From: Rebecca billardiae RCC1528 | Lineage: Eukaryota; Protista; Haptophyta | Length of the DNA stretch: 64,000 nucleotides | Reading direction: 5' to 3' | Assembly: GCA_965240325.2 (NCBI GenBank) | Contig: OZ251222.1 | Location: 1,550,001 to 1,614,000 of the forward strand | In this document: in pieces, positions 3-20,100 of the stretch | Layout: each line of letters opens with the position of its first letter | How positions within the stretch are numbered: position 1 is the first letter of the stretch | Notes under the pieces: generated by a model | What the model was told of the DNA's origin: nothing | Database searches by the model: none | Seen by the model: only the letters and a program-made list of their open reading frames with translations | Translations under genes and position numbers: made by a program

Positions 3-3000
3 TTTGTGCGCCGGCTCGCTTGCACGCCGCATACCTCGCAGCTCGTGCTGCGCGGCTCTTACCTGCTCCGCGCGTACCTGCCGGCGCTGCCACGGCCTGT
101 GGCGGACCTTGACTTTCTCGCACTGTGCCCCAACGACGCTCCGCTGGTCGAATCCATGATCCGTGACGCGTGCGACCAGCGCGTGGCTGACGGCCTCGCG
201 TTTGCGCGCGGCGCCGTCTCCTCGCAGCGGCACTGGGAGGGCACGGAGCACCCGGGGCTCAAGCTGACGGTGGAGTGCCACGAGCTGAACGTCGGCTCCG
301 ACGCGTCGCGCGCGCCGGCGACGCATCGCTTCAGCGTCGACGTGGGCTGGGGCGATCCGCTGGTGCCGCCGCCGGGCGCGCTGCACGTGCGCGCCGCGCC
401 CGTGGCGGCAGGCGGCGCATCCGCCTGCGTTCCGCTCGCCGCACGGGCGGAGACGCTGCTGGCGTGGAAGCTTCACGGCCTCTTCGAGCACGAGAGCGCG
501 GGTCTGAGCCAAGCCGGCGTCCCCAAGGGCTACTGGCGCCCGAAGGACCTCTTCGACTGCTGCCTGCTCGCCACCGCCGGCGCGCGGCTCATGCGCGCGT
601 CCGCGCTGCGCGACGCGGTCGTCGCGGCCTTCGCCTCGCGCGGCTACCCGGTGAGCCGGCTGGTGCGGCTGGCGCACGGCCGCTTCGGGACGAGCACGAA
701 GAGCGCGCGCAATTACGCTCGTTGGCGTGCGTCCGTCCTCGCGAGCGCCCCGGCCGCCGCCGAGTCTGGCCGCCGGGGCGCGGCTGCGCCGATCCCCGAG
801 AGCGCGCAGGCATGCGTCGCAGCGCTCGCGCCGACGTGCGCCGCGGTGCTGCGCGAGCTGGGCTACGCGCCGCTGCCCGGCGAGACGCTCCCCTTCGCCC
901 CGGCGTGGCAGGTGGCCGAGCTCGAACGCACGCTCGCCTCCGCGCCGTCGCGCGTCGTCGTCGATCGCGCCGCGCCCATCACGCCGAGCACGGCGCCGCG
1001 CGCGGCGGCGCGCGAGCCGTCGGCGACCACCGCGACGGCGCCCGAGGCCCTCTTCATCGTCGGAGGCGCGAACCGTGCCAAGTGGGAGGAGACGGCCAAA
1101 GTGCTGGCCGAGTACGCCAGCCTGGTCGTGCCGTGCGCGTACACGCCGCCCGAGGAGCTGCGCTTCCCGCCCGGCCTGGCGGACGGCTCGACGCGCGCGG
1201 TGGACGTCGTGCACGCGCTCGCGCGCCACTGCCACAAGGCGCTCGGCCGCGCGTGCATCGTCGAGCTCGCGCTGCTCGAGCTGGCTGGCGGCGCGCGCCC
1301 GCTCGTGCTGCATCGGCTGCCAGCGCACGAGGAGCGCGGCTTCGCCCGCGCGCACGCCGGCCGCGCCGCGCGCTTCCACGCGCTCATCGGGTACATCGGC
1401 CCGGATGGCGGGCCGGTCGAGGTGCTCGAGGGCGATCTGGACGGCGAGATTGTGAGCCCCGTGCGCGGCGAGCGCGCGCACGGCTGGAACCGGTGCTTCC
1501 AGCCCGAGGGCCACGGGAAGACGCTGGGCGAGCTGGGCGAGTCGCTCGCGTACGTGCAGCCGCGCGTGCGCCCGCTGCTCGAGCTCGCCGCCATGCTCCG
1601 CACACCGCTCGCGTACGGCACCCTCGAGCGCAGCCGCGGGCTGTTTGAGCTGCACGTGAGCGTGCGCACGCCGAGCGAGCCGGAGGGCGGCGTGCCCACC
1701 TTCCGCGAGGCGTGCGGGCTGCTCGGCGTCAAGGCCGTCGTGATCGATAACGAGGGCGGCGCCACGCCGCGCCAGCTCATGACCGCCTCGTACACGCAGG
1801 GCTCGCTGCGCGACGCGCTCACCGCCGCGTTCGTGCTCGCGCGCCGGCTGAGCGCGCTCGGCTTCTGCGTGCTCCGAACCAAGGTGGAGGCTGGATTCCA
1901 CAACCCGGGCGTGCCGGCGACCGACGCGGAGGCCGCGGCGCTCTCGCCGCACAACTACTTCGAGGTGCACTGGAAGCTGCGCCTCCCGCGCGGTGGCGCC
2001 GAGCTGCCGGCGCTCGCGCGGCTCGCGGCGGCGCACGGTGCGCGGCTGTCGCGCTCGGCGCTCAAGCGCGCGAGCAGCGGCGGCGAGGGCGGCGTTGGGC
2101 ACGAGCAGCGCTTTGTCACGCTGCGCCTGTACGACTGCGGCCGCGAGCGCGCGGCCGAGCGCGTGCGCCGCCTGACCGACGAGCTCGCGGAGCACGGCTA
2201 CCACGTGCTCACCACCATCCGCGAGTACGCGGTGTACGACTCCAACGTGGCGATGGACGCGGGCTGGATCGATGCGCCTGGCCCCACCGCCAGGCCGGGC
2301 GGCCGCGCGAGCGGCGCGGCGCCGCAGACGCCCGCCGGCGCCGCGCGGGACGCGGCCGGCAAGCTGGGCGCCGACGCGCTCGCAACGGCTCACGAGCCGT
2401 TCGGGGCGGTAACGGTGCACTCGGGGCGAGCGAGCGCAGAGGCTCGGGGCCGAGTGCCCCCCAGAGGGTCGCAGCTCGACGCGTCGGCCGGCCGCGCGGA
2501 CGGTGCGACCGCGACGGCAGCGGTCGCGCGCACAGCCGCGCCGCCGCGCGGCGCTGCCGGCGGCCCCGCCGCCGAGGCCTCGGCCACGGCCGCGACGGAG
2601 GCACTGGGCGACCTCGTGCGTGGCGCGCTCTGGCACCGCGCGCACCCGGCGCGCGGCTGGGACCCTTCGCAGCTGCTCGGCGCTCTGCTGGCGGAGGTGG
2701 GCGCCGGCCGCGCGTCCGTGGCGTGGGAGCCCGAGCGCGGCGGCGCGGCGGCGCTCACCGGCGCCGACGGCGGCGCCGGGCGCGGCGGCGCCCGGCTCGG
2801 CCTCTTCCACTACAAGCAGAGCGTGAAGCACTGGACGCCAGCGCTGCTCCTCGCGCGCGGGCTGCTGCTGCGGCAGGACGGCCGCCATGCCACCCTCGTG
2901 GGCACGCCCTTCCCCAAGTTCTTCGAGCTCGGGCGCGACGGCGTCAGCCTCGCCGAGCTCGAGCACTGCGCGCTCCGCTGGGAGGCGACGGAGAAGCTGG

Positions 3001-4058
3001 ACGGCTCGATGGCGCTGCTCGTGTGCGACCGCGGGCGCTGGCGCGTGCTCACCAAGCGCGGCTTTGGCTCGGAGCAGGCGGCGTGGGCGGAGTCCTGGCT
3101 GCGCGCCCGCGCGGCGCACCTCCCGAGCGCGCTCGAGGCTGGGTGCACGTACGTGTGCGAGGTCGTGTCCCGCGCCAACTGGGTGGTGGTGCGCTACCCG
3201 CCAGAGCGGGAGGGCGTGTGGCTGTGCGCCGCGTACGGCCGAGACGGGGCCGAGCTCGAGCGACCGGCGCTCGAGGCGGTGGCTGCGCGCGCCGGGCTCC
3301 CCCTCGTGCCCCTCGTGGCGAGCGGCGTGCTGCGGCCCGCGCCAGCCGGTGGCGCGACCGGCCCGGAGGCGGGCGACGAGCCGGCGCGCGCGCGGCTTCG
3401 CGAGACGATCGGCGCGGCGCTCGATGCGCCGGACGGCCACCGCGCCGAGGGGCTCGTGCTGCGCTTCGTGCTGCCCGGCGGCGCAGCGCACCGCGCCAAG
3501 GTGAAGGCGCGGGCGTACGCGCGCCTGTACCGGCTGCAGGACGGGCTCACGCCGCGTGCCGCGTGGACCGCCGCCAAGGCTGGCGGCGTGGACGCGCTCG
3601 ACGCGCTGTGCGACTCGGCGCCGGAGGAGTTTGCGCACTACATGGCCGGCGTGCGCACGCTCACGCTCGCGGCGGTGTGTGACACGGCCGCCCAGGCGCA
3701 CATGGCTGTGCGCGCCGCCGCTGCCATGGGCCGCACGGATGCGCGCGGCCTCGCCGAGCTCCTGCGCGAAGCGAGCGCTTGGCCGGACGGCGCGCCCATC
3801 ACGCAGGCACAGCGCCGGTTGGCGCACAAGGCGCTCGCCGGCCGGCTCGGCGCGGCCGAGCTTGCGCTCGGCGCTGTCCAAGACGGCGGGCCCGACCGGG
3901 CGCGCGCGGCCCGCGGCGCGGCGCTTCTCGGCCAGCTCGACGCGACGGCGCGCCACGCGCTGTTCACTTTCGTGCCCGTCAGCGCACCGCAGGACGCACG
4001 CTCTCGGCATGTGCACCTGGCCGATGGCACTCGGCTACTCAATCACCAGCGGCACTAG
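3..4058 (+). CDS. Multidomain fusion (5'-partial): AbiEii/AbiGii-family nucleotidyltransferase + Ham1/ITPase-like + uncharacterised FExH-repeat domain + T4 Rnl1-like RNA ligase
   Basis: One intronless frame, open from the window edge (..FVRRLA..). AbiEii motifs LVLRGSYLL, RPVADLDF, VDVGWGDP, ETLLAWKL, RPKDLFD (~6-730). Ham1-like GGANRAKWEE..GDLDGEIVSPVRG..HGWNRCFQPEG..KTLGEL (~1050-1600). FELHVSV..YFEVHWKL..RFVTLR..EYAVYDSN..D.GW (~1640-2270). Rnl1 motifs PFPKFFE, EKLDGS (2991), YVCEVV, EGLVLRF, KVK (~2780-3560). Confidence 0.88.
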   Translation, partial: FVRRLACTPHTSQLVLRGSYLLRAYLPALPRPVADLDFLALCPNDAPLVESMIRDACDQRVADGLAFARGAVSSQRHWEGTEHPGLKLTVECHELNVGSDASRAPATHRFSVDVGWGDPLVPPPGALHVRAAPVAAGGASACVPLAARAETLLAWKLHGLFEHESAGLSQAGVPKGYWRPKDLFDCCLLATAGARLMRASALRDAVVAAFASRGYPVSRLVRLAHGRFGTSTKSARNYARWRASVLASAPAAAESGRRGAAAPIPESAQACVAALAPTCAAVLRELGYAPLPGETLPFAPAWQVAELERTLASAPSRVVVDRAAPITPSTAPRAAAREPSATTATAPEALFIVGGANRAKWEETAKVLAEYASLVVPCAYTPPEELRFPPGLADGSTRAVDVVHALARHCHKALGRACIVELALLELAGGARPLVLHRLPAHEERGFARAHAGRAARFHALIGYIGPDGGPVEVLEGDLDGEIVSPVRGERAHGWNRCFQPEGHGKTLGELGESLAYVQPRVRPLLELAAMLRTPLAYGTLERSRGLFELHVSVRTPSEPEGGVPTFREACGLLGVKAVVIDNEGGATPRQLMTASYTQGSLRDALTAAFVLARRLSALGFCVLRTKVEAGFHNPGVPATDAEAAALSPHNYFEVHWKLRLPRGGAELPALARLAAAHGARLSRSALKRASSGGEGGVGHEQRFVTLRLYDCGRERAAERVRRLTDELAEHGYHVLTTIREYAVYDSNVAMDAGWIDAPGPTARPGGRASGAAPQTPAGAARDAAGKLGADALATAHEPFGAVTVHSGRASAEARGRVPPRGSQLDASAGRADGATATAAVARTAAPPRGAAGGPAAEASATAATEALGDLVRGALWHRAHPARGWDPSQLLGALLAEVGAGRASVAWEPERGGAAALTGADGGAGRGGARLGLFHYKQSVKHWTPALLLARGLLLRQDGRHATLVGTPFPKFFELGRDGVSLAELEHCALRWEATEKLDGSMALLVCDRGRWRVLTKRGFGSEQAAWAESWLRARAAHLPSALEAGCTYVCEVVSRANWVVVRYPPEREGVWLCAAYGRDGAELERPALEAVAARAGLPLVPLVASGVLRPAPAGGATGPEAGDEPARARLRETIGAALDAPDGHRAEGLVLRFVLPGGAAHRAKVKARAYARLYRLQDGLTPRAAWTAAKAGGVDALDALCDSAPEEFAHYMAGVRTLTLAAVCDTAAQAHMAVRAAAAMGRTDARGLAELLREASAWPDGAPITQAQRRLAHKALAGRLGAAELALGAVQDGGPDRARAARGAALLGQLDATARHALFTFVPVSAPQDARSRHVHLADGTRLLNHQRH

Positions 4059-4149: not shown

Positions 4150-4534
4150 ATGGCGCGCGGTGTCAAGGCGGAGCGCGGTAGCGTGGAGCCCCGCTGTGTG
4201 CTCGCGCGCCTGCCGGTACGTCCCGCTGTGTGCTCGCGCGCCTGCCGGTACGTCCCTCCGCCAAGGCTCGGCCTAGCCGATCGAGGGATGCATCACCGGG
4301 ACCGGCCAAGCCCTCCGCCGGCGCCGCCGGGCCGCCCGCGCGCCGCCGCCAGCCGGTGCTGAAAAGCCCACTAGCCGCGTGCGGCTGGCTGCAGTGCGCG
4401 TGCGAGCGGCGCAATCAGCGTGGGCGGCGTTGCGCGGCGCGATGAAGGCCAGATGCATGACAGGTTCGACTCCACCGCGTCACACGCGGCCGAGCGCGCG
4501 CTACACCGGGACGGCCGTCCCGGCCAGAGCGCAT
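4150..4534 (+). mobile_element. Non-autonomous element copy 1 (Helentron/Helitron2-like family); 3' end uncertain
   Basis: 4150 ATGGCGCGCGGTGTCAAGGCGGAGCGCGGTAGCGTGGAGCCC matches the reverse complement of the ends at 47788-47827 and 61720-61758. Internal 32-bp tandem repeat (~4190-4256). CACCGCG at 4473 and palindromes at 4475-4489 and 4506-4523. Confidence 0.5.
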
Positions 4535-4559: not shown

Positions 4560-4680
4560 GGTTACCCAGGTGGACCAGGGGACCAGCGATCAATGAGACA
4601 ATGAGCCGTGATTGATCGTTATTGCTGACCAGGGCGGCGCCAGCGCATACAGAACAACGCAGGTTACCCAGGTGGACCAG
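4560..4680. repeat. 19-bp direct repeat GGTTACCCAGGTGGACCAG (4560-4578, 4662-4680) within degenerate ~100-bp units
   Basis: Exact copies read directly; both lie just downstream of CAGAAC, with AGCGCAT further upstream. Confidence 0.8.
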
Positions 4681-5118: not shown

Positions 5119-8100
5119 ATGGCCTTCGCCAACGCGAGTTCGGCACGTGCTGAGGAGGTGACCGAGCCCACTCCTGACGGAACGGCTGAGCTCCTGCGCC
5201 GCCCATCGCGCGACGAGCCTGGGCGCCTCCTCTTCCCCATCGCGTCCCTCTTCTTCTTCCACCGCGTGCTGCTGCCGAGCGTGCTGCTTGGCGGCGATGA
5301 CCCGCTCGGCTGCGTCCTTCTCGTCGCGTGCGTCTGCCTGCTCGGGTGCGAGGTGGGCGCACTGGCGCGAGGCATGCGCGCACAGGGCACGTGCACGTCG
5401 CTCAGCATGCCCTCCTTCTTCGGCGGCCCACAGGTACGGCGGTGCCACCGGCACCGAGCTGCTGGCTCGTGCCCGCGAGCGCCCGCGCGCGGCGAGCGTG
5501 CTCGCCTGAGCGTGAGGCCGTTGCGGCGGCGGCGGCGCGACGAGCCCCGCCCTCCTCGGGGCGCGCCCCGAAGCGGGCCAACCCTGGCGACCCCGTGACC
5601 CCGCGCCTCCCGGCGCGCGCCCGCCCACCGCCTCGCAGCACGAGCGACGCGTGCGCGGAGGACTCGCTGCGGGCACAGCGTGCTCTCCGTCGTCTTCCTC
5701 TTCTTCGACTGCTGCCGGCGGACGTACCGGCGCCTACACGTCGGCTGCATCGCTCGCCGCTCGCCGTGGCGTGCGGTGCCCGGCCCTCGTGCTCGCGATG
5801 ATCATGGCTTTGGCGCCGGCGGCGACCGCGCAGACCTCACTGCGCACTCAGCTCATCACAGATTACCCCGAGTGCTTCCCCGGGGGCAGCTTTGACGCCG
5901 ACTACTGCTCCAACAACGTCACCGGCTCCATGTGCGCGCGCGTGTGGCGCGGCTCCGCGTCCCTGCGCGTGCGCGCACCGCGCGGTGACGCGCGGTGAGC
6001 ACCCCGTGCGCGCCTGACTTGCACGGCCGCCTGCGCCGGCAACACGCACGCCCGCGGCGACGCGCAGCATCTACGGCGCTGTGGGCGGCACGGTGCCGAC
6101 GGAGCTCGGGAACTTCCACTCGCTCGGCTCACTGTAAGCCGGCGCTGCGCATGCGCCCCGCGCGCCATCTGCGGCGTGCGCGCTTCCGCTGGCCCTCGCT
6201 CGCCGATCCATGCCGCGCCCACGCTCCCTCACCGCGCCCGCGCGCTCGCACCGCAGCACTCTGCTCGGCAACGCCCACTCGGGCACCGTCCCGACCGAGC
6301 TCGGCACGATGTCGGCGCTCGAATCTCTGTGCGTGCGTGCAGCTCACATCGCGTAGGGCTGGCGTGCCACGCGTGGTGGCGCGATCGCACCCTCACTGAG
6401 CCGGTGCCCACCGCCGGCGCGCGCGCGCGCGCGCGCGCAGGCGCCTCGAGGACAACAACTTGGTCGGCACCGTCCCGTCCGAGCTGGGCTCGCTGACGCG
6501 CTTGGACGAAAACCTGTGCGCCGCCACCCCGCGCCTTCCCCGCAGCGGCGCACCAGTCAGCGGCTGACCCGTCGCACCCGGCCCGCATGCCGTTGCTCTT
6601 TCGGCCGGCCCGACAACCCTCCCACCTGGCAGCTCCTTCCAGGGCAACTCGCTCACCGGCACGATGCCGACGCACCTCGGCCAGCTCACGAGCGTGTACC
6701 TGTTGTGCGTGGCGCGCGTGGCTCGCCCTGCGTACCGTGCTCTTCGCTCGCAGCGTGCGGCACGTGCGGCCGCTCACCGGCGCCATCGCGGCACCTCGAC
6801 GCGCGCTCCCACGCCGCGCCAGCAAATTCGACGACAACTCTTTGACCGGAACCATCCCGACCGAGTTTGGGCGGCTGGCGAATGCGTATGGCCTGTACGC
6901 GCAGCCGAGCACGCCGTGCCGCGCGCCGCGCGCCTTCGCCGCGAACATCTGCTCATGCCCGGACGTCTGCGCGCGTGCTGCTGCTCACGGCTTAGGACCC
7001 TCGACGGCAACATGCTGACTCAGACCATCCCGAGCGAGCTGGGGCAGCTGGACTCGAGCTTGCACGAGCTGTGAGCGCAGCCGACGCGCTGCGCGCCCAC
7101 GCTGCGCGCGCCCACGCTGCGCGCTGCGCGCTGCGCGCTGCGCCTCGCCGGGAGCACGCGCGCGTGCGCCGCGCGTCGCAGCCCACCCTCGGCCGCACCC
7201 CCGCCCGCCGCAGCTATTTGCACTCCAACTCTTTGGCGGGGTCGATCCCGACCCATCTCGGCCAGCTGTCCGTCCTGGATGACTTGTGCGCGCCAGAGGC
7301 GCCGCGCCCCGCGCGCGGCGGGCGACGCGCACGCAGCTCTCCTCTCACGCATGTACGTCCAACTGTGGCGCTTGCGCGCGCGCTGCTCGCTGCAGGTACC
7401 TGCATTCGAACAGTCTCGTCGGGCCCATCCCATCCGAGCTGGGTGAGCTCACCGCTGTCAAGTTGATGTGCGCGCGGCGCACGCGCAGGCCGGTGCACCG
7501 CGTGCGCGCGCGCGGCTGGCGGCCCTCTCACCAGCGTCGACGCTGCGTGCTGCCCGCTCGCGTGCCGCGTTGCGCAGGATCCTCTATGGCAACATGCTCA
7601 CTGGTGGCCTACCGGTGGCGCTGGGAACCGGCTTGACGAGCATGCGCGCGCTTCTCCTTCAATCCAACTCGCTCGTCGGCGCCATCCCGGCCTCGCTCGG
7701 TGCGTGCAGCTCCCTGACCTACCTCGGCCTGAACTTCAACTCGCTCACGGGCACGCTGCCGACCGAGCTGGCCGGCATGACAAAGCTGCAGACGTTGGAG
7801 ATGATGGGCAACTCGCTGGGCGGGAGCCTTCCGACGAGCCTCGGCGGCCTGACGCAGCTGCAGTACCTGTACCTCGCCGAGAACGCTCTCACTGGCTCGA
7901 TCCCGGCCGCACTCGGTGCCTTGACCGCGCTCATGCACCTGTGGCTGTACACCAACTCTCTGGTCGGCTCGCTGCCGACGGCGGTGGCCGACATCGGCTT
8001 GCTTCAGAGCGTGGATTTGCGTGGAAATGCGCTGACCGGCCCCATCCCCTCTGAGCTGGGCGGCGCCTTCGGCCTGACCCAACTCGCTCTCTACGACATG

Positions 8101-11100
8101 TCGCTGGCGGGCGCCATCCCCTCAGAGCTCGGCCTGTGCACTCGACTCGCGTTCCTGGACGTGTACGGCAACTCTTTCTCTGGCAGCCTGCCAACCGAAG
8201 TGGGCGCACTCACCGCCCTGGGCGACCTGGTCCTCAACGGCATGTCCTTGACCAGCACCCTCCCATCACAGCTCGGCGCGCTGACCCGGCTCACCGAGCT
8301 GGCCATCGATGGTAACGCGCTGAGCGGCACGATTCCAGCGTCGCTCGGCGGCTTGACGGCTCTCACACAGCTCGACCTCTACTCCAACTCGCTGGCGGGC
8401 GCTCTCCCCACCGAGCTGGGCGCGCTGACCCGCCTCTGGTATCTGCGCGTCGACCGCAACTCGCTGAGCGGCACGATTCCAGCGTCGCTCGGCGGCTTGA
8501 CGGCTCTCATACAGCTCGACCTCTACTCCAACTCGCTGGCGGGCGCTCTCCCCACCGAGCTGGGCGCGCTGACCCGCCTCTGGTATCTGCGCGTCGACCG
8601 CAACTCGCTGAACGGCACGGTCCCCTCGGAGCTTGGCGCGCTGACTGCACTCTCATCTCTGAAGGCGTTCACCAACGCGCTCACCGGCACGATGCCAACA
8701 TCGCTCGGCGGCTTGACGGCACTCACGGATCTGAGTGCTGCGAGCAACTCGCTGGCGGGCAGGCTCCCCACGGAGCTCGGCCATTGCACGCGCGCCTGGA
8801 GCATCGGCCTCGACTTCAACTCCCTCACTGGGCCAGTGCCCTCCGAGCTCGGCTCACTCACTGCTCTTGCCTTCCTCGACCTGAACGACATGTCGCTGAC
8901 TGGTGCCCTGCCGTCCGAGCTGGGCTCGCTGACTGTTCTCTCACGGCTGGCCGCGTCCGGCAACGCGCTGAACGGCACGCTGCCCGCTGCGCTCGGCAAT
9001 ATGTCGGCTCTCGAGACGCTCTGGTTGCACACGAACACGCTCAGCGGCACCGTGCCGTCGGCGCTCGGCCTCCTCACGAGCCTGGTGTACCTGGAGGCGC
9101 ACACGAACCAGCTGACCGGTGCCGTCCCGTCTGAGATCGGAGCGGCGACGAGCCTGGTCGAAATAGACCTGAGGGCCAACTCTTTGTCGGGCTCCCTTCC
9201 CTCAGCACTTGGCGCGCTGCAGAGCCTCACGACGCTCGACCTGCAGACCAATTCGCTGACGGGCAGCATGCCGTCCGAGCTCGGCACGATTGGAGTGCTG
9301 GCGAACCTGGCCCTCTTGGACAACTCGTTGAGCGGCACCATTCCGCCGCAGCTCTTCTCGCCCAGCCTGGAGACCCTGTACCTCGAGGGCAACTCGCTGA
9401 ACGGCAGCATTCCAACCGAGATCGGCAGTTCCACGCTCGTGCGCTTCTTGTACCTCGGCAGCAACAGCCTCACTGGCACCGTCCCGCACGAGCTTGCGCA
9501 GCTGACGCTGCTGCAGGTGGTGTCCGCCCGGCAGAACTCGCTGAGCGGCACCGTGCCGACAGAGCTCGGAGCTCTCACGCAGTTCCTCTTCCTGTACTTC
9601 GACGGGAACTCGCTGAGCAGCGCCATGCCGACGGAGCTGGGCGTGCTGACGAGCGCCCTGCAGATGACGTTTGCAGGGAACGAGCTCACTGGCACGATTC
9701 CATCCGAGCTTGGAGCGTGCACGCGCTTGACATCGATTGCCTTAGAGCTCAATTCGCTCAACGGCGCGTTCCCGACCGAGCTGCTGCAGCTGACTGCCTT
9801 GCCTGCCGGCGGCTTCACGTACGACGGCCGCACCGCCGCCAACGAGCTGACGTCGTGCTCGGACGGCGGCTGCGTATGCGCTGGCTCAGAGGCGTTCAAC
9901 ACGACCAACGGCGCTTTCAGCCCTGACATCATTGACCTCGTCGTGTGCCCATCTCCGCCGCCACCTCGCCCACCGGCGCCGCCGCCGAGTCCGCCGCCCT
10001 CGCCCCCGCCCTCGCCGCCGCCAAGCCCTCCGTCGCCGCCGCCGTCGCCTCCTGCCCCGCCCCCGTCGCCGCCGCCGCCGCCCTCGCCGCCGCCCTCGCC
10101 GCCGCCGCCCTCGCCGCCGCCCTCGCCGCCACCCTCGCCGCCGCCGCCGCCCTCGCCGCCGCCCTCGCCGCCGCCGCCCTCGCCGCCGCCCTCGCCGCCG
10201 CCGCCCTCGCCGCCGCCCTCGCCGCCGCCCTCGCCGCCACCGCCGAGCCCTCCGCCGAGCCCTCCGCCAGACCTGTCCAAGCTCAAGGCACAGATGCGTG
10301 CAGCGGTGACCGAGTGCTTCCCCGACACCGACGAATTCGACCCGGCCCTGTGCAGCGCGTACTACAACGCCACGCTCATCGACTTCTCGGGGAACGCGCT
10401 CTCTGGTCCGATCCCTACCGAAGTGGGCTATTTGACCTCGGCGCTAGGGCTGTGGCTCCACACCAACTCGCTGTCTGGCCCGGTGCCGACAGAGGTCGGC
10501 TTGCTGACTGGCATGCAGCTGCTCTACCTCCAAGACGCTGGGCTGACGGGGACGCTGCCGACAGAGCTCGCATATCTGACGAGCGTGACGTCCGTGCGTG
10601 TGGACGACAACGCGCTGAACGGCACCATTCCAGCCTGGCTGGGCAATGCCACCAGCCTTCGGACTGTCTACTTCCACAACAACCACATGACCGGCACGAT
10701 CCCGCCCGAGCTGGGGCGGTGCACCGAGATGGAGCTCATGTACTTGCACGGCAACCGGCTCACGGGGCAGGTCCCATCCGAGATCGGCGCGATGACAGGG
10801 CTCAGAGTGGTGTACGCCCACACCAACAGCCTGTCTGGCACGCTGCCCACCACGCTCGGCGCGCTCACCCGCATCGAGGAGCTCTTCTTTCACACGAACA
10901 AGCTCACCGGCGCCCTGCCCACTGAGCTGGGTGGCGCGACGAGCCTGACGTGGCTCGCCGCCCAGCAGAACTCGCTGGCTGGTCGCATCCCGTCCGAGCT
11001 CGGGATGACCGACATGTACGCGCTCTACCTCTGGACCAACGAGCTGACCAGCAGCATCCCGTCGGAGCTCTTCAGCATCCAGAGCCTGACGGCGCTGTAC

Positions 11101-14100
11101 GCGCAGGCCAACTCGCTGGTCGGCAGCATCCCCACCGTGATCGGAGTGGCCACGCGCATGCAGTACTTGTACCTCGACACCAACTCGCTCACCGGCACGC
11201 TTCCGACAGAGCTTGGCAGCCACACAGCGGCAGAAGCCCACTCATTTGCGAGGAACTCGCTGGTCGGCACGATCCCTTCTGAGATCGGGCTTGTGAGCCG
11301 GCTGCAGGTGCTGACCCTCTTTAGCAACATGCTCACCGGCACGCTCCCATCGCAGATTGGCACCCTCACAAGTGCTATCAGTGTGCAGATGCAGTCGAAC
11401 TCGGTGAGCGGAGCGCTGCCCACTGAGGTCCTGTTGCTCACCTCGTTGCTGGCGGGGCAGTTCGGGTACGACGGCCTCACGCCGAGCACGACTGCGAACT
11501 GCGTTGATGGTGGCTGCCTGTGCGCAGCCACCCCTTTCAGCTCCAACGGCGGCTTCACCCCTGACCCGGCCGACCTCGTCGCCTGCCCGTCGCCGCCCCC
11601 TTTGCCCCCGCCGAGCCCTCCGAGCCCACCCCCCAGCCCACCGCCCTCACCGTCACCACCATCGCCACCGTCCCTCCCGCCGAGCCCTCCGCCCCCGCCG
11701 GCGCCGCCGGCGCCGCCTCCCAGCCCACCGCCGCTGGCCGTTCCACCGTCGCCACCCTTTCCACCGCCCTCGCCGCCACCCACGCCGCCGCCCTCGCCTC
11801 CGCCGGCGCCAACGTTGCGCGCACAGATGCGCGCAGACTACCCCGAGTGCATCGAGGAGTCTGGCGCCTTCAACGTGGCGGCGTGCAGCAGCATCGGGGG
11901 CGGCGTCGACTACAGCAGCAGCGCGCTCTCGGGCACGGTCCCCACGGAGATCGGCTACATGTCATCGATGCTCGACTTTCGCGTGTTCACCAACGTGCTC
12001 ACGGGTCCGCTTCCGACCGAGGTCGGGTTGCTGCCCAACCTGCAGCTGCTCTACGCGCACGGCAACTCGCTGACAGGGAGCGTCCCATCGCACTTTGGTG
12101 CGGCGACGAGTCTGGTGGTTCTGTCCCTTGGCCCCAACTCGCTGAGCGGCACAGTGCCATCCGAGCTCGGGCAGCTCACGCGGCTGGGGCAGCTCTATCT
12201 CTACGCCAACACGCTGACGGGCACGGTGCCGTCCGAGCTGGGCGCGCTCACGAGCGTCTCCAACCTGTGGATGGAGTCGAACTCGCTGAGCGGGGCGATG
12301 CCGACCGAGGTGCTGCTGCTCACGTCGCTTGGGACGGGCACCTTCACGTACGACGGTCTCACCTCGGCCACGCAGGGCACGTCGTGCGCTGACGGCGGCT
12401 GCGTGTGCGCGGCATCGCCCTTCGCCAACAACACCGCGTTCTCGCCGGACCTCGCCGACCTGCTGACGTGCCCGTCGCCGCCGCCGACGCCGCCGCCTTC
12501 GCCGCCCCCGTCGCCGCCGCCGCCTCCCAACCCACCTCCACGCCCGCCGCCGAGCCCACCTCCGCCGAGCCCGCCAATGCCGCCGCCAAGCCCACCTCCC
12601 TCGCCGCCACCACCCGGCCCACCCTCGCCGCCGCCGTCGCCGCCGCCGAGTCCACCTCCACCGACAAGCCCTCCGCCCAGCTCGCCACCATCGCCTCCGC
12701 CGAGTCCACCGCCCCCACCGCCGTCTCCTCCGCCGGCGCCGACGCTGCGCGCACAGATGCGCGCAGACTACCCCGAGTGCATCGAGGAGTCTGGCGCCTT
12801 CAACGTGGCGGCGTGCAGCAGCATCGGGGGCGGCGTCGACTTCAGCAGCAGCGCGCTCTCGGGCACGGTCCCCACGGAGATCGGCTACATGTCATCGATG
12901 CTAGGCCTTTATGTGTTCACCAACGCGCTCACGGGTCCGCTTCCGACCGAGGTCGGGTTGCTGCCCAACCTGCAGCAGCTCTACGCGCACGGCAACTCGC
13001 TGACGGGGGCCGTCCCATCGCACTTTGGTGCGGCGACGAGTCTGGTGATTCTGTCCCTCGGCCCCAACTCGCTGAGCGGCACAGTGCCATCCGAGCTCGG
13101 GCAGCTCACGCGGCTGCAGGAGCTCTATCTCTACGCCAACGCGCTGACGGGCACGGTGCCGTCCGAGCTCGGCGCGCTCACGAGCGTCTCCAACCTGTGG
13201 ATGGAGTCGAACTCGCTGAGCGGGGCGATGCCGACCGAGGTGCTGCTGCTCACGTCGCTTGGGACGGGCACCTTCACGTACGACGGTCTCACCTCGGCCA
13301 CGCAGGGCACGTCGTGCGCTGACGGCGGCTGCGTGTGCGCGGCATCGCCCTTCGCCAGCAATGCAGGCTTTTCGCCGGACCTCGCCGACCTGCTGACGTG
13401 CCCGTCGCCGCCGCCGACGCCGCCGCCTTCGCCGCCCCCCACGCCGCAGCCACCCCCGTCGCCGCCGCCGCCTCCCACCCCACCTCCAAGCCCGCCGCCG
13501 AGCCCACCTCCGCCGACCCCGCCAATGCCGCCGCCAAGCCCACCTCCCTCGCCGCCACCACCCGGCCCACCCTCGCCGCCGCCCTCGCCGCCGCCGCCGC
13601 CCGCGCCGCCTCCATCCCCGCCGCCGAGCCCGCCGCCCCCCTCCCCTCCGCCGAGGCCTTCCCTGCGTGCTGTGCTGGCGTTCCTCTACCCCGAGTGCTT
13701 TGAGGAGACTGGCTCCTTCAACGAAGCCACGTGCAACGGCATTGGTCCGAGCATCGACTGGTCTGTCGCTTCGCTGACTGGCACGATCCCGACAGAGATT
13801 GGCTACATGGTCGCGCTCGACTCGATGCACATCTTCACCAACTCGCTCACCGGCACCATTCCGACCGAGATCGGAGCGCTCACAGCTCTGACCAATTTCT
13901 TCGTGAATGGAAATGATGTGATTGGTTCTCTCCCCACGGAGGTGCTACTGCTGACCTCGCTGGACCCAGGGGTTGGATTCTGGTACGACGGCATCACCGC
14001 AAGCAACCAGGGCACGGACTGCGCGGATGGCGGCTGCGTGTGCGCTGGCACAAGCTTTGCCAGCAAGGGCAACTTCATCCCAGACCCGGCTGATCTTCTG

Positions 14101-17100
14101 GCCTGCGGGTCGCCGATGCCACCTCCCTCGCCGCCGCCGCCATTGCCACCGCCATCGCCGCCACCCAAGCTGCCGCCGAGCCCGCCGCCAAGCCCGCCGC
14201 CGCCGATGCCGCCGCCGTCACCGCCGCCGCTGTTGCCACCGTCGCCGCCGCCGATGCCGCCGCCGTCGCCGCCGCCGTCGCTGCCGCCGTCGCCGCCGCC
14301 GATGCCGCCGCCGTCGCCGCCGCCGTCGCTGCCGCCGTCACCGCCGCCGATGCCGCCGCCGTCGCCGCCGCCGTCGCAGCCCCCGCTCCCGCCCCCAAGC
14401 CCGCCTCCGCCGCCAACGCCGCCGCCGTCGCCTCCGCCATCATCACCACCGTCCCCACCACCGGGGCCGAAGCCGCCGCCATCGCCGCCACCTACTCCGC
14501 CACCATCACCGCCACCGCCGCTGCCGAAGCCACCGCCGAGCCCACCGCCGCTGCCGCCAACGCCGCCGTCGCCACCGCCGTCCCCGCCACCATCGCCACC
14601 ACCAAGCCCACCACCTTCACCAAGCCCACCGCCGTCGCCACCGCCGTCCCCGCCACCGTCTCCACCACCAAGCCCACCACCTCCACCGAGCCCGCCGCCG
14701 TCACCGCCACCATCCCCGCCACCGTCTCCGCCGCCAAGCCCGCCACCCTCACCGCCGCAGCCACCGCCAAGTCCCCCGCCAAGTCCACCGCCGTCGTCAC
14801 CTCCGCCATCACCACCAGCGCCACCACCATCACCGCCGCCAAGCCCACCACCTCCACCGAGCCCACCTCCGTCACCACCACCGCCACTGCCTCCTCCCAG
14901 CCCACCACCGTCACCACCACCTTCGCCGCCGCCGGCGCCTCCTCCCAGCCCACCACCGTCACCACCACCTTCGCCGCCGCCGCCGGCACCACCTCCTCCA
15001 CCGTCGCCGACCCCATCACCGCCGCCCTCGCCGCCACCGCCCTCGCCGCCGCCGTGGGTGTCGCGTGGCGGTCCGGCGACGCCGTACAACGACACGATCG
15101 AGTACAACAGCGCGCAGAGCGACTTCCAGTCCGACCAGGCGGGCAACACGTTCGACGTGAGCATCGACCTGCTGAGCGGCGACGACACGCTGGTCGTGGG
15201 CTCGGCGGGCGACTCGTCAGCGGGCAACGGCGCGGGCGAGTCCGTGGTCGGCACGATCCTCGGCAGCGAGGGCACCGACGTGATCACCGTCGGCGGCGCC
15301 GGCGACGGCCTGAACCAACCGACGAGCGTGGGCGGCTCGATCGAGCTCACGGTCGACGGCGGCGACGGCGCGGACACGATCACGGTGGGCGGCGCGGGCA
15401 AGGGCGCGTCCAGCTCCGGCGCGCTCGGCGGCTCGAGCAACGTGACGGTGTTCGGAGGCGCCGGCAACGACACGATCAGCGTGGGCGGCGCGGGCCGTGG
15501 CGACTACGGACCCAACACCGGCGGTGACGCGAGCGTGTGGATCGACGGCGGCGACGGCGGCGACACGATCGTCGTGGGCGGCGGTGGCGTCGGCGCGAGG
15601 AGTGGATTTGGCGGCGACATCACCGTGCACGTCGACTCCGGCGCTGGCGACGACTATCTGAGCTTGGGCGGCGGTGGGTTTGGCTACTGGAGCGGCACTG
15701 GCGGCTCGGCCGAGCTGTACGTGAACGCGGGCGAGGGCGACAACACCGTGCTCGTGCCCACCGTGGGCGGTGAGGCGAAGGGCGGTGGCAAGGGCGGCGA
15801 TGGGAGCTTGCACGTGCTCGCCGGCGGCGGCGCGGACACGGTGCAGGTCGGCGGTGGCGGAGAGGGCTACATCGGTGGCCAGTTCGGAGGCGACGCCACC
15901 GTGTACGTGTCCACTGGCGGCGGGGACGATGACATCTCCGTCGGCGGGAGCGGCATGGCCCAATATGGCTCAAAGGGCGGCGGCTTGACCGCCGTGGTGG
16001 ACGCTGGTGACGGTGACAACTCGATCACGATCGGGGGCTCGGGCGGTGCCCTCAGCAGCGCTGAGTCCGGCGCATCGAACGTTGCTGTGACGGCGGGCGA
16101 CGGCGACGACGTGATCGTCGCGGGTGGCGTGGGCTACGCGACTAGTGGCGCCAAGTCAGGCGACTTCACACTTGCGGTCGACGCCGGAGGCGGGAACAAC
16201 GACATCGAGGTGGGCTCAGCGGGCGGCGGCCTAAACGCTCTCCCCGGCTCGCTCGAGGCGACGATCAGCACCCTCGGCGGGAACGACACGATCGTCGTCG
16301 GCGGCGGCGGGTACGGCTATGGCGCCACGGACGCAGGCGACGTTGTCGTGAACGTGTTTGCGGGCGACGGAGACGACAGCGTGGCGATTGGCGGCGGCGG
16401 CGACGCCTCTGCTTCTTCCGCGTGGGGAGGCAGCGTGTACGCGAATGTGAGCGCGACCGGCGGCGATAACGTCGTCGCCATCGGCGACAGCGGGAACGGC
16501 GTAAGCAGCGGCACTGGTGGCCACGTGGACGCTCGGGTCGAGCTCGGCGACGGCGCGGACGTCGTGACCATCGGCGGAGCCACCCCACAGTCTGGCCTCG
16601 GGAGAGGCGGCGATGTGACGTCGTACGTCCGTTCGGGCGGCGGCGCGGACGTCGTGACCATCGGCGACGCGGGCGATGCGGACACTGCCAGTTGGTACAC
16701 TACCAGCTTTAGTCAGGGTGGCAACACGCGCGCGTTCGTGTTTGCGGGCGAGGGCGACGACCGCGTGTACGCGGGCGACGCGGGCGACACGCTGGCTTCG
16801 ATGTTGAACTTCGGCGGCCATGCGTACGCGAACGTGCACGGCGGCGCGGGTGACGACGTTCTGCGCGGCGGCAACGGCGGCGACGCTGTCGCTGGCTCGG
16901 GCGAGGGCGGCGACGCGCTGATCAAGCTGTATGGCGACGACGGCGACGACCGGCTGTACGGCGGCGACGACGGCCTTGCCCTGGAGATGGGCGCCGACCC
17001 GGGCGAGGCGACGACGCACCTGCTCGGCGGCGGCGGCAACGACTACATCCGCGGCGGCACCGGGTACAACTACGCGGCCGGTGCGCGCGTGCGCCCCGCG

Positions 17101-20100
17101 CTGCGCCGCGCCGCACGCGCGCCCTGCGCCTCTGCGCATCCGCGTGCGCGGCACCGGCACGCGCTCACTCGCAGCGGCGCGGGCACACCGGCACACCGCG
17201 CGCTCGGCCGGCAGGCGGCGCCGGCAACGACACGATCCGCGCGGGTGACGGCGGTGCCTACAACAATGTCACCAACGCCTCCGCCACGGCGTACACCATC
17301 GCGCGTGGCGGCGATGGCGACGACATGCTCACCGGCGGCACTGCCGGCGCCGACCCGACCGGCGGCATCAGCGGCGGCACCGCTGTGAGCAAGCTCTACG
17401 GCGACGCCGGCGACGACGTGATCACCGGCGGCGCGGCCGGCGGTGCCGACCCGGGCGCGGTGACCACGTACATCTACGGTGTGCGCCGCGCGTGCAGCGG
17501 CGGGTCGCGGCACCGCCACGGCCAACGCTGAGCGCGCTTCGAGTGTGCGCGTGCGCGCTCGCGCGTGTTCCTGCCCCCGCGCGCGCCACAGGCGGCACCG
17601 GCGAAGACACGATCTACGCAGGCGAAGGCCGCGCCATCATCAGGGGTGCGTGGCCGCTGGCGCGTGCCGCGCGCTCCGCCAGTGCGCCGCCGCGCGTGCG
17701 TCGCTGAGCGCCCTCGCCGCCGCTCGCGCGTCGCGACCGCGCGCACAGGCGGACCGGGCGTGGACACGATCTACACGCGCGACAACGGCTTTGTGGACAC
17801 GCTGTACGTCGAGTGGACGGACTCGTGGGACGTGGACCCGTTCGACATCGTGATCACGCCACCCGCGCCGCCGCCCTCGCCGCCGCCGCCCTCGCCGCCG
17901 CCGTGGGTGTCGCGTGGCGGTCCGGCGACGCCGTACAACGACACGATCGAGTACAACAGCGCGCAGAGCGACTTCCAGTCCGACCAGGCGGGCAACACGT
18001 TCGACGTGAGCATCGACCTGCTGAGCGGCGACGACACGCTGGTCGTGGGCTCGGCGGGCGACTCGTCAGCGGGCAACGGCGCGGGCGAGTCCGTGGTCGG
18101 CACGATCCTCGGCAGCGAGGGCACCGACGTGATCACCGTCGGCGGCGCCGGCGACGGCCTGTACCAAGCGACGAGCGTGGGCGGCTCGATCGAGCTCACG
18201 GTCGACGGCGGCGACGGCGCGGACACGATCACGGTGGGCGGCGCGGGCAAGGGCGCGTTCAGCTCCGGCGCGCTCGGCGGCTCGAGCAACGTGACGGTGT
18301 TCGGAGGCGCCGGCAACGACACGATCAGCGTGGGCGGCGCGGGCCGTGGCGACTACGGACCCAACACCGGCGGTGACGCGAGCGTGTGGATCGACGGCGG
18401 CGACGGCGGCGACACGATCGTCGTGGGCGGCGGTGGCGTCGGCGCGAGGAGTGGATTTGGCGGCGACATCACCGTGCACGTCGACTCCGGCGCTGGCGAC
18501 GACTATCTGAGCTTGGGCGGCGGTGGGTTTGGCTACTGGAGCGGCACTGGCGGCTCGGCCGAGCTGTACGTGAACGCGGGCGAGGGCGACAACACCGTGC
18601 TCGTGCCCACCGTGGGCGGTGAGGCGAAGGGCGGTGGCAAGGGCGGCGATGGGAGCTTGCACGTGCTCGCCGGCGGCGGCGCGGATACGGTGCAGGTCGG
18701 CGGTGGCGGAAAGGTCTACGGCGGTGGCCAGTCCGGAGGCGACGCCACCGTGTACGTGTCCACTGGCGGCGGGGACGACGACATCTCCGTCGGCGGGAGC
18801 GGCATGACCCAGTCTGCTACAAAGGGCGGCGACTTGACCGCCGTGGTCGACGCTGGTGACGGTGACAACTCGATCACGATCGGGGGCTCGGGCGATGCCC
18901 TCAGCAGCGGTGAGTCCGGCGCATCGAACGTTGCTGTGACGGCGGGCGACGGCGACGACGTGATCGTCGCGGGTGGCGTGGGCTACGCGACTAGTGGCGC
19001 CAAGTCAGGCGACTTCACACTTGCGGTCGACGCCGGAGGCGGGAACAACGACATCGAGGTGGGCTCAGCGGGCGGCGGCCGAAGTGCTCGCCCCGGCTCG
19101 CTCGAGGCGACGATCAGCACCCTCGGCGGGAACGACACGATCGTCGTCGGCGGCGGCGGGTACGGCTATGGCGCCACGGACGCAGGCGACGTTGTCGTGA
19201 ACGTGTTTGCGGGCGACGGAGACGACAGCGTGTCGATTGGCGGCGGCGGCGACGCCTCTGCTTCTTCTGCGTGGGGAGGCAGCGTGTACGCGAATGTGAG
19301 CGCGACCGGCGGCGATAACGTCGTCGCCATCGGCGATGGCGGGAACGGCGTGAGCAGCGGCACTGGTGGCCACGTGGACGCTCGGGTCGAGCTCGGCGAC
19401 GGCGCGGACGTCGTGACCATCGGCGGAGCCACCCCACAGTCCGGCCTCGGGAAAGGCGGCGATGTGACGTCGTACGTCCGTTCGGGCGGCGGCGCGGACG
19501 TCGTGACCATTGGCGACGCGGGCGATGCGGACACTTCCATCTTTTTTAGTCAGGGTGGCAACACGCGCGCGTTCGTGTTTGCGGGCGAGGGCGACGACCG
19601 CGTGTACGCGGGCGACGCGGGCGACACGCTGGGTTCGATGTTGAACTACGGCGGCCATGCGTACGCGAACGTGCACGGCGGCGCGGGTGACGACGTTCTG
19701 CGCGGCGGCGATGCCGGCGACGCTGTCGCTGGCTCGGGCGAGGGCGGCGACGCGCTGATCAAGCTGTATGGCGACGACGGCGACGACCGGCTGTACGGCG
19801 GCGACGACGGCCTTGCCCTGGGCGAGGGCGCTCATCCGGGCGAGGCGACGACGCACCTGCTCGGCGGCGGCGGCAACGACTACATCCGCGGCGGCACCGG
19901 GTACAACTACGCGGCCGGTGCGCGCGTGCGCCCCGCGCTGCGCCGCGCCGCACGCGCGCCCTGCGCCTCCGCGCATCCGCGTGCGCGGCACCGGCACGCG
20001 CTCACTCGCAGCGGAGCGGGCACACCGGCACACCGCGCGCTCGGCCGGCAGGCGGCGCCGGCAACGACACGATCCGCGCGGGCGACGGCGGTGCCTACAA

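Follow-up and report, generated by a model that had tools for sequence, protein, structure and literature searches.

What does a eukaryotic cell do with a protein that joins a nucleotidyltransferase (NTase) of the AbiEii family, a Ham1 domain, a domain covered by no Pfam family and an ATP-dependent RNA ligase in one chain? The question is raised by a gene at the start of a 64,000-nucleotide stretch from the haptophyte Rebecca billardiae RCC1528 (assembly GCA_965240325.2, contig OZ251222.1, forward-strand positions 1,550,001 to 1,614,000), which as a whole is called the window here. Reasoning from sequence comparison throughout, we lean, with a little better than even confidence, to the view that this fusion protein would repair broken RNA by cleaning, refilling and resealing its ends, the RNA probably being tRNA. 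An adder of 3′ nucleotides, ligase families that have been swapped, and a third domain (here called D3) that tracks three classes of ligase into phages are together most simply accounted for by RNA repair.

The Gene and Its Modules

The gene lies in a stop-free plus-strand frame of 1351 codons that is open at the 5′ edge of the window. Its features are as follows:

3..4058, plus strand: open frame with four modules; its 5′ end lies beyond the window, and P0002 is the full-length form
3..755, plus strand: AbiEii/DUF1814-family NTase, assigned by Pfam AbiEii (residues 3-251, E 1e-15), PADLOC and motifs
1041..1595, plus strand: Ham1/ITPase-fold domain, predicted to be catalytically dead, assigned by Pfam, a local profile and residue checks
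1623..2276, plus strand: D3, a tandem ferredoxin-like domain and predicted enzyme, assigned by alignment A3 (129 rows), a structural model and the PADLOC label "AbiEi"
2277..2609, plus strand: linker rich in Ala, Gly and Pro, unconserved among relatives
2610..3647, plus strand: T4-Rnl1-type ATP-dependent RNA ligase with motifs I (lysine 2994), III, IV and V and the first part of a helical C-terminal domain
3648..4058, plus strand: helical-looking C-terminal extension common to the closest relatives (P0003, P0022 and P0023), with the stop codon at 4056-4058

A sequence-only reading of this locus had described one uninterrupted frame of host-like GC carrying four modules, and frame reading, Pfam and GC at the third codon position (GC3) bear this out: GC at the three codon positions is 0.79, 0.59 and 0.92, and the GC3 of 0.92 compares with 0.83-0.98 in four host genes of the window. 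The description of the gene as intronless stands for the window as read, and fails for a relative, a three-module gene on metagenome contig L119 whose frame is broken by apparent GT-AG introns. The missing 5′ end, whose recovery had been proposed, is supplied by P0002, a protein of 1398 amino acids on a 4466-base contig that has 47 residues more than the window frame. A hydrophobic segment in this extension, with a mean hydropathy of 2.0 across 19 residues, is followed by an arginine run and a net seven basic residues, and the extension is predicted to resemble a signal anchor or membrane anchor.

The Nucleotidyltransferase and the Ligase

Both folds on which the sequence-only reading depended are assigned by profile searches, with Pfam scores above the curated cut-offs, and the motifs lie where they had been placed: DxD at nucleotides 105-113, the ligase lysine at 2994, motif IV at 3447 and motif V at 3495. 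The NTase scores 58.8 bits against the Pfam AbiEii cut-off of 22.5 and matches PADLOC model PDLC02319 (E 2e-45); the solved AbiEii structure 9hlo_B is matched by a myxobacterial relative at E 2e-11, and by the window domain alone only at E 1.2. Its motifs are intact, namely R-x-x-x-D-x-D (nucleotides 93-113), the third acidic strand (336-356), the lysine motif (450-479) and K-D-x-x-D (534-557); in the NTase alignment DxD is present in 92 of 100 rows, the arginine in 92 of 92, the lysine motif in 96 of 100 and K-D-x-x-D in 92 of 100. The profile of RlaP (PF10127), another family of nucleotidyltransferases, does not match the window protein, while the true RlaP genes of a planctomycete locus described below score E 1e-41 to 1e-50. 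The actinobacterial NTases (L027 and others) make up a clade of their own, lengthened at the N-terminus by about 90 residues, and a ligase was never present in the fetched flanks of their loci.

The ligase domain matches Pfam RNA_lig_T4_1 over residues 951-1078 (E 1.3e-8, above the curated cut-off) and PHROG 562 (E 7e-28), and the comparison of profile A4 with T4 Rnl1 (E 4e-34) aligns motifs I, Ia, III, IV and V together with the helical C-terminal domain. All of its catalytic motifs are intact. Its nearest non-fused relatives are stand-alone Rnl1-type proteins (P0040, P0054 and P0124) that look eukaryotic and possibly represent an unrecognised family of protist ligases.

D3, a Predicted Enzyme Labelled AbiEi

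D3 takes up residues 541-758, about 220 residues between Ham1 and the ligase, and in a scan of the window protein no Pfam family covered it. Its counterparts among phage protein families are PHROG 25995 and, in its C-terminal half, the MazG-like PHROG 1247, and two PADLOC models labelled AbiEi match it (PDLC02277 at E 4e-47). Pfam AbiEi gave no match on the window protein, and the PADLOC label is probably positional. AbiEi has a winged-helix fold, according to the accessible text of PMC11375011, from which the modelled fold of D3 differs; the D3-NTase pair is thus already catalogued in PADLOC, but on the model D3 is not a winged-helix AbiEi.

The D3 model (predicted local distance difference test score, pLDDT, 93.8) consists of two ferredoxin-like repeats, each opening with a strand that bears E-x-H. 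In the first repeat this motif is near-invariant across the 129 rows (H11 in 100% and E9 in 97% of filled rows), and R85, K87, E89, Y112, E114, H116, R168, E201 and D206 (domain numbering) are invariant. In the model the most conserved polar residues alternate along strands, a pattern that suggests a site for metal and phosphate binding. A PDB sequence search with the D3 profile returned nothing (best E 0.08), and the matches listed by Foldseek among solved structures reach a template modeling (TM) score of at most 0.33; the best VIA match (Z 7.9, root mean square deviation 4.4 Å) is in the range of common arrangements. Neither 2H phosphodiesterases nor CYTH/TTM proteins appear among the Foldseek or VIA matches listed for D3. 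Uncharacterised proteins of phages and giant viruses are matched by the model at TM 0.55-0.83. A complex prediction for D3 and the NTase that did not use the alignments scored 0.00, which speaks neither for nor against an interaction.

A Ham1 Domain without Its Catalytic Aspartate

Pfam Ham1p_like covers residues 452-513 (E 1.5e-9), and a local profile extends the domain to 347-520. The possibility of an intact pyrophosphatase falls away, as leucine replaces the catalytic aspartate and QPR replaces SHR; the NCBIfam profile of the housekeeping Ham1 gives the window protein 30 bits against a cut-off of 145. This state is general in the family: none of 48 Ham1 rows, near-duplicates among them, has the catalytic aspartate, and SHR is altered. 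What the window protein does keep is the nucleotide-binding triad N-x-x-K-x-x-E (nucleotides 1062-1091; residues 357, 360 and 363), as do its closest relatives, with family-wide counts of 22/48 for N, 26/48 for K and 32/48 for E. In many rows the domain may be a decaying relic.

The obvious comparison is with KomB of the Kongming system. The best PDB matches of a myxobacterial copy of Ham1 are 9v0g and KomB itself (8zsg, E 6e-13), ahead of human ITPase (8e-11), and both of these carry histidine at the catalytic site. As far as the accessible text of the KomB study goes (bioRxiv 10.1101/2024.12.20.629578), KomB has histidine in place of the aspartate and no hydrolytic activity on dITP, and it depends on Asn9, Lys12 and Glu15. 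Since the triad is kept in the window protein, yet the catalytic position holds leucine and not histidine (which occurs at this site in 0 of 48 rows), the domain falls outside the KomB group, although its way of working may be similar. A search of plasmids with KomB sequences gave short matches only.

Relatives in Other Eukaryotes

The four-module gene is not a one-off: distant relatives among the haptophytes share it, and other eukaryote-like proteins have three-domain forms. Emiliania huxleyi EOD33607 has all four modules in the same order and is 55% identical, its gene model being without parts of the ligase. A partial protein of a Prymnesium species begins in the tail of the NTase, continues across Ham1 and D3 and reaches the ligase; more of the NTase is visible in one member of its cluster. 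Further copies seem to be represented in fragments by P0020 and P0023 (longest contig 13,547 bases for both), P0022 and P0027. NTase, Ham1 and D3 are joined without a visible ligase in P0021, P0026, P0035 (EukProt) and P0167, with P0079 incomplete; 33 of the collected proteins are Ham1-D3 only, and a D3 protein of Cavenderia has a degenerate Ham1-like part at its N-terminus. A metagenome scan gave one locus, which ends before a ligase could show, and Atlas matches were to unnamed clusters only. Because the word-index searches are incomplete (known long relatives such as P0167 were missed), the distribution given here for the four-module form is a minimum.

The predicted anchor is shared as well. 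A 19-residue hydropathy peak of at least 1.68 lies ahead of the NTase in eight of nine eukaryote-like NTase proteins (the ninth reaches 1.51), three of the nine having long leaders that raise the chance of such a peak; none of 65 bacterial NTases has one in the 45 residues upstream. In the NTase tree, the window protein, the Emiliania protein and three unnamed rows form a well-supported group (100/97). In the D3 tree, the window, Emiliania and Prymnesium proteins group together (100/100) within eight mostly NTase-fused rows (99/98), with all named bacterial rows beyond one supported branch (99/99). The backbones of both trees are open, so that they do not resolve a bacterial donor.

Bacterial Operons and the Case for a Toxin

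Are the modules neighbors in prokaryotes, as the sequence-only reading had asked? They are. A search of GTDB with the D3 alignment gave 152 loci, of which the best 80 were analysed, with domains assigned by local profiles. Of these 80, 73 have an NTase after D3 in the same orientation, and two of the seven loci without one are cut off by the end of a contig. Fourteen contain an Rnl2-type ligase (PF09414), nine have a Ham1 domain, which is fused to D3, and eight have all four modules. The myxobacterial order is ligase, Ham1-D3, NTase. D3 is present in 32 genomes of an evenly drawn sample of 301 Myxococcota; within 1.5 kb on either side of 30 such loci, an NTase is found in 28, Ham1 in 21, a ligase in 19 and all four in 15, many of these loci being close kin and hence not independent. 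In samples of other phyla D3 is rare (2/301, 1/401 and 3/301 genomes, each count including the seed genome).

The idea of an operon collapsed into one protein has to be qualified. The ligase of the myxobacterial operon is of the Rnl2 type and that of the alga of the Rnl1 type, so the algal gene is not a simple collapse of the myxobacterial operon, and the module has taken up different ligases more than once. A second Rnl2 gene stands beside the operon in one locus (L008).

A two-gene layout with the NTase downstream is also what would be expected of a toxin and its antitoxin, and PADLOC files the pair as AbiEi/AbiEii. On this alternative, the protein is a toxin-antitoxin or abortive-infection system in one chain: the NTase would poison tRNA 3′ ends, D3 would act as antitoxin by stripping the added nucleotides, the dead Ham1 would sense a nucleotide made during infection (as KomB senses dITP) and switch D3 off, and the viral copies of D3 would be counter-defence. 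The several parts of this proposal taken together seem unlikely to us, and a toxin-antitoxin or antiviral role is less likely than repair. The Ham1 evidence is divided: KomB is among the best solved relatives of the myxobacterial domain, the aspartate is gone from every row and the window protein keeps the triad that KomB needs, but the histidine that is invariable in KomB-type sensors occurs in no row and the triad is only partly kept across the family. MenA antitoxins are diverse, in the accessible account of PMC11375011, so another type of antitoxin is conceivable. The same source and bioRxiv 10.64898/2026.01.19.700257, in their accessible parts, describe AbiEii/MenT toxins as silenced through antitoxin-induced auto-phosphorylation at T65, S78 or T39, and the latter reports that a T65A mutant is less toxic in vivo. 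The phospho-acceptor position, two residues before DxD, is valine in the window NTase and serine or threonine in only five of 92 rows, so this form of control cannot be general here.

Nor do the surroundings of the operon suggest defence. Among flanking open reading frames (ORFs) from 28 loci (127 of 208 scanned with PADLOC, 49 with NCBIfam, and no background control), no defence-island pattern appeared; the PADLOC hits were generic (kinases, HEAT proteins, TnpB-like proteins and transcription factors), and the neighbors were mostly housekeeping genes. ORF clustering and the PADLOC and NCBIfam scans of part of the flanks showed no recurring SIR2 neighbor, a search with a SIR2 profile not being among them. 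Phages and giant viruses that have D3 without the NTase (an NTase model matched in none of five unrelated D3 phages examined) would suit counter-defence. It is hard to see what a ligase would do in a suicide system, however, and many eukaryote-like D3 proteins, such as that of Cavenderia and the 33 Ham1-D3 proteins, have no NTase in the same chain. The antiviral or toxic role raised by the sequence-only reading thus finds no support so far, with no defence-island pattern, a phospho-acceptor that is mostly absent and viruses that themselves carry D3.

D3 in Fusions, Repair Clusters and Viruses

A role at RNA ends, which had been suggested from the domains, gains support from the company that D3 and its NTase keep elsewhere: links to Rnl1, Rnl2, RtcB, Hen1/RlaP/Pnkp and RNase Z recur. 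A survey of fusions among the 150 best representatives found NTase-Rnl1 (P0096 and P0098), Rnl2-D3 (P0107), RNase Z-D3 (P0120), five D3-NTase proteins and one NTase-D3 protein; a fusion of a PIN nuclease to the NTase (P0101) comes from Alexandrium. In two genomes of the Cyanobacteriota sample (L125 and L126), D3 is followed by an NTase-Rnl2 fusion, the ligase being assigned by local profile in both and confirmed by Pfam in L126. One Planctomycetota genome (L124) has, on one strand, Hen1, RlaP, D3, NTase, a small ORF, a second RlaP, a HEAT protein and Pnkp in that order. The small ORF, between the NTase and the second RlaP (L124:4440-4835, minus strand), encodes 132 amino acids and has no Pfam match.

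Phages extend the pattern. D3 is encoded in 21 phage records of about six lineages: in phiM12 it lies 0.8 kb from Rnl1, and a gene for a CCA-adding enzyme is 3.7 kb farther on; in the Arash phage the distance to RtcB is 0.4 kb, and an Rnl2-type gene is 2.4 kb away in XacN1 and 8 kb away in LAh_8, while RP13 has no ligase match and has tRNA genes near D3. A rough placement calculation for the proximity of D3 and ligase in the four phages that have a ligase gives a combined p of ~0.002, a value that leaves out RP13 and ignores the clustering of accessory genes. Two giant-virus D3 proteins (L081:4881-5612 and L083:4779-5654) resemble the eukaryotic fusions in having a predicted membrane anchor at the N-terminus, with basic residues after it. 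D3 is split over two frames in a viral contig of 360 kb (L082:4983-5629), beside a DNA polymerase B gene that seems to be frameshifted too, and the split may be a sequencing error.

The nuclease links invite a second alternative, in which damaged or deaminated RNA bases are excised by cutting, trimming, filling and sealing. A partner nuclease (endonuclease-V-like DUF99, PIN or RNase Z) would cut, D3 would trim, the NTase would refill and the ligase would seal, with Ham1 reading the levels of inosine or xanthosine nucleotides. Metal-dependent nucleases of the Endo_dU, PIN and RNase Z kind leave a 3′-OH and a 5′-phosphate, ends that would account for the absence of a kinase, and deaminated purines are known ligands of Ham1 folds. 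Along with the PIN and RNase Z fusions, there are Endo_dU genes (PF01949) next to the operon in two Myxococcales loci (L003 and L008) and in L125, which comes from the sample of a different phylum; this amounts, however, to only two of 80 plus one of five loci, and no known nuclease family is represented in the window protein. The GWD aspartate and SHR, which we take to be the base-recognition residues of the Ham1 pocket, are also changed in the window. As a whole, this pathway appears distinctly improbable. Very unlikely is a third alternative, that D3 hydrolyses or otherwise breaks down a free non-canonical nucleotide, of which the NTase is a possible source, in nucleotide-pool or signal metabolism with the ligases as loosely co-located stress genes: D3 is fused to two pyrophosphatase folds, Ham1 and the MazG-like domain of a 635-kb phage (L123:4683-5672, plus strand, E 7e-4; among FolD-like, DHFR-like and nucleotide-kinase-like genes), and resembles S-adenosylmethionine (SAM) lyase (Z 5.2) and SAM-AMP lyase (Z 4.3) weakly and within the range of chance arrangement, but the repeated fusion to two ligase families and RNase Z and the Hen1-RlaP-Pnkp placement are left unexplained.

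How Would the Protein Repair RNA?

If the fusion does clean, refill and reseal RNA ends, the following order of events can be envisioned. D3, as a predicted metal-dependent phosphoesterase, would take the block off a broken end, candidate targets being a cyclic or 3′ phosphate or the nucleoside monophosphate (NMP) cap left by a failed ligation. The NTase would then restore one or a few nucleotides on the 3′-OH, and the Rnl1 domain would join this end to a 5′-phosphate, either one left by the cleavage or one added by a kinase whose gene lies elsewhere. The dead Ham1 may bind a purine nucleotide and tune D3, or may be a relic spacer, and the N-terminal anchor would keep the enzyme at the cytosolic face of a membrane. 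There is precedent for the refilling step in RlaP (PMC12776372 and PMC7824862), which adds one or two NMPs to the 3′-OH of damaged RNA, according to the accessible text of PMC12776372.

Several considerations weigh against this repair scheme. No ligase is present in the fetched flanks of 66 of the 80 bacterial loci, all actinobacterial ones included, so the core D3-NTase pair can work without an adjacent ligase, and inspection found no ligase near D3 in three giant-virus contigs, in RAS14 or in the MazG-D3 phage. All characterised AbiEii/MenT relatives are translation-blocking toxins in the accessible parts of PMC11375011 and bioRxiv 10.64898/2026.01.19.700257. The Hen1-RlaP-Pnkp context comes from one genome and could reflect insertion into a repair cluster. 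The chemistry given to D3 is a guess from a model with no structural relative of known function; a 3′-phosphatase would duplicate Pnkp where the two occur together and would be of no help to RtcB; and the fusions of D3 to MazG (L123, PHROG 1247) and Ham1 equally suggest work on the nucleotide pool. No kinase is fused in the window protein, and the patchy spread across genome samples (32/301, 2/301, 1/401 and 3/301, with the seed genome counted in each) fits a conflict system of any kind.

A more ambitious proposal would combine repair with base excision: a hitherto unrecognised machine for RNA excision and rebuilding in which a clade of AbiEii "toxins" turned gap-filler, working with D3 as a new class of end-processing enzyme, a ligase and a sensor of inosine nucleotides, passed from bacteria to protists, became fixed to a membrane in haptophytes and had its D3 copied by jumbo phages and giant viruses that protect their own translation. 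We think it doubtful that all of this holds at once.

Comparison with Known Systems

A close parallel is RlaP (PF10127), a template-free NTase that is tied to varied RNA ligases and, in the accessible text of PMC12776372, is proposed to restore nucleotides lost from damaged tRNA before sealing. The NTase described here is likewise linked genetically to varied RNA ligases, and L124 has RlaP and D3-NTase together; unlike RlaP, it belongs to AbiEii/DUF1814, is accompanied by D3 and a dead Ham1, is fused to a ligase and occurs in eukaryotes. With AbiE and MenAT it shares the NTase family, the catalytic motifs, a two-gene layout with the partner upstream and PADLOC models for both genes, but its partner is a tandem ferredoxin-like D3 in place of a winged-helix AbiEi, the phospho-acceptor is mostly absent, and ligase and Ham1 are added partners. 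The Ham1 resembles KomB in lacking the catalytic aspartate, in keeping the triad in the window, in its altered SHR and in its top PDB sequence matches; it differs in having no histidine at the catalytic site and in being fused to D3, and no SIR2 (KomC) or deaminase (KomA) partner was seen. Finally, T4 Pnkp-Rnl1, fungal and plant Trl1 (one chain) and bacterial Hen1-Pnkp also combine an ATP-dependent Rnl1-type ligase with end-processing modules, but in the window protein no kinase, HAD or calcineurin phosphatase or 2H phosphodiesterase domain was detected, and NTase, D3 and a predicted membrane anchor take their place. We found no paper that joins these modules or names the Emiliania or Cavenderia proteins; the gene neighborhood may be mentioned in the 2016 survey of RNA repair by Burroughs and Aravind (NAR) or its supplements, or in those of the jumbo-phage survey.

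If the repair scheme is true, it would give a function to a widespread unnamed family, D3, in bacteria, jumbo phages, giant viruses and protists, and part of the AbiE toxin-antitoxin pairs in defence catalogues would be RNA repair. Eukaryotes would have an RNA ligase system distinct from Trl1 and RtcB, and the algae that have it form blooms and are kept in check by giant viruses. The Ham1 would be a second independent case of a dead domain beside Kongming KomB.

The Setting of the Gene

The gene stands among eukaryotic genes, which in the window encode leucine-rich repeat proteins, a CLC channel, an Fpg glycosylase, PGK, a JmjC-ankyrin protein and an SRCR protein. Contamination is ruled out by these neighbors, the host-like GC3 and the relatives in named haptophytes. 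A minus-strand frame of 1344 codons is most likely a shadow of the kind usual at 77% GC. Farther on, a stop-free plus-strand frame of 3313 codons (7447-17388) has many leucine-rich repeats split by proline-rich runs, with a Gly-rich RTX-like repeat region in its 3′ part, and more long frames follow to ~38,000; the Pfam scan gave no annotation for any of these. Just downstream of the gene, a 29-base tandem duplication lies at ~4190-4258, and a stretch of lower GC (62%) holds a 20-base direct repeat at 4560-4580 and 4660-4680.

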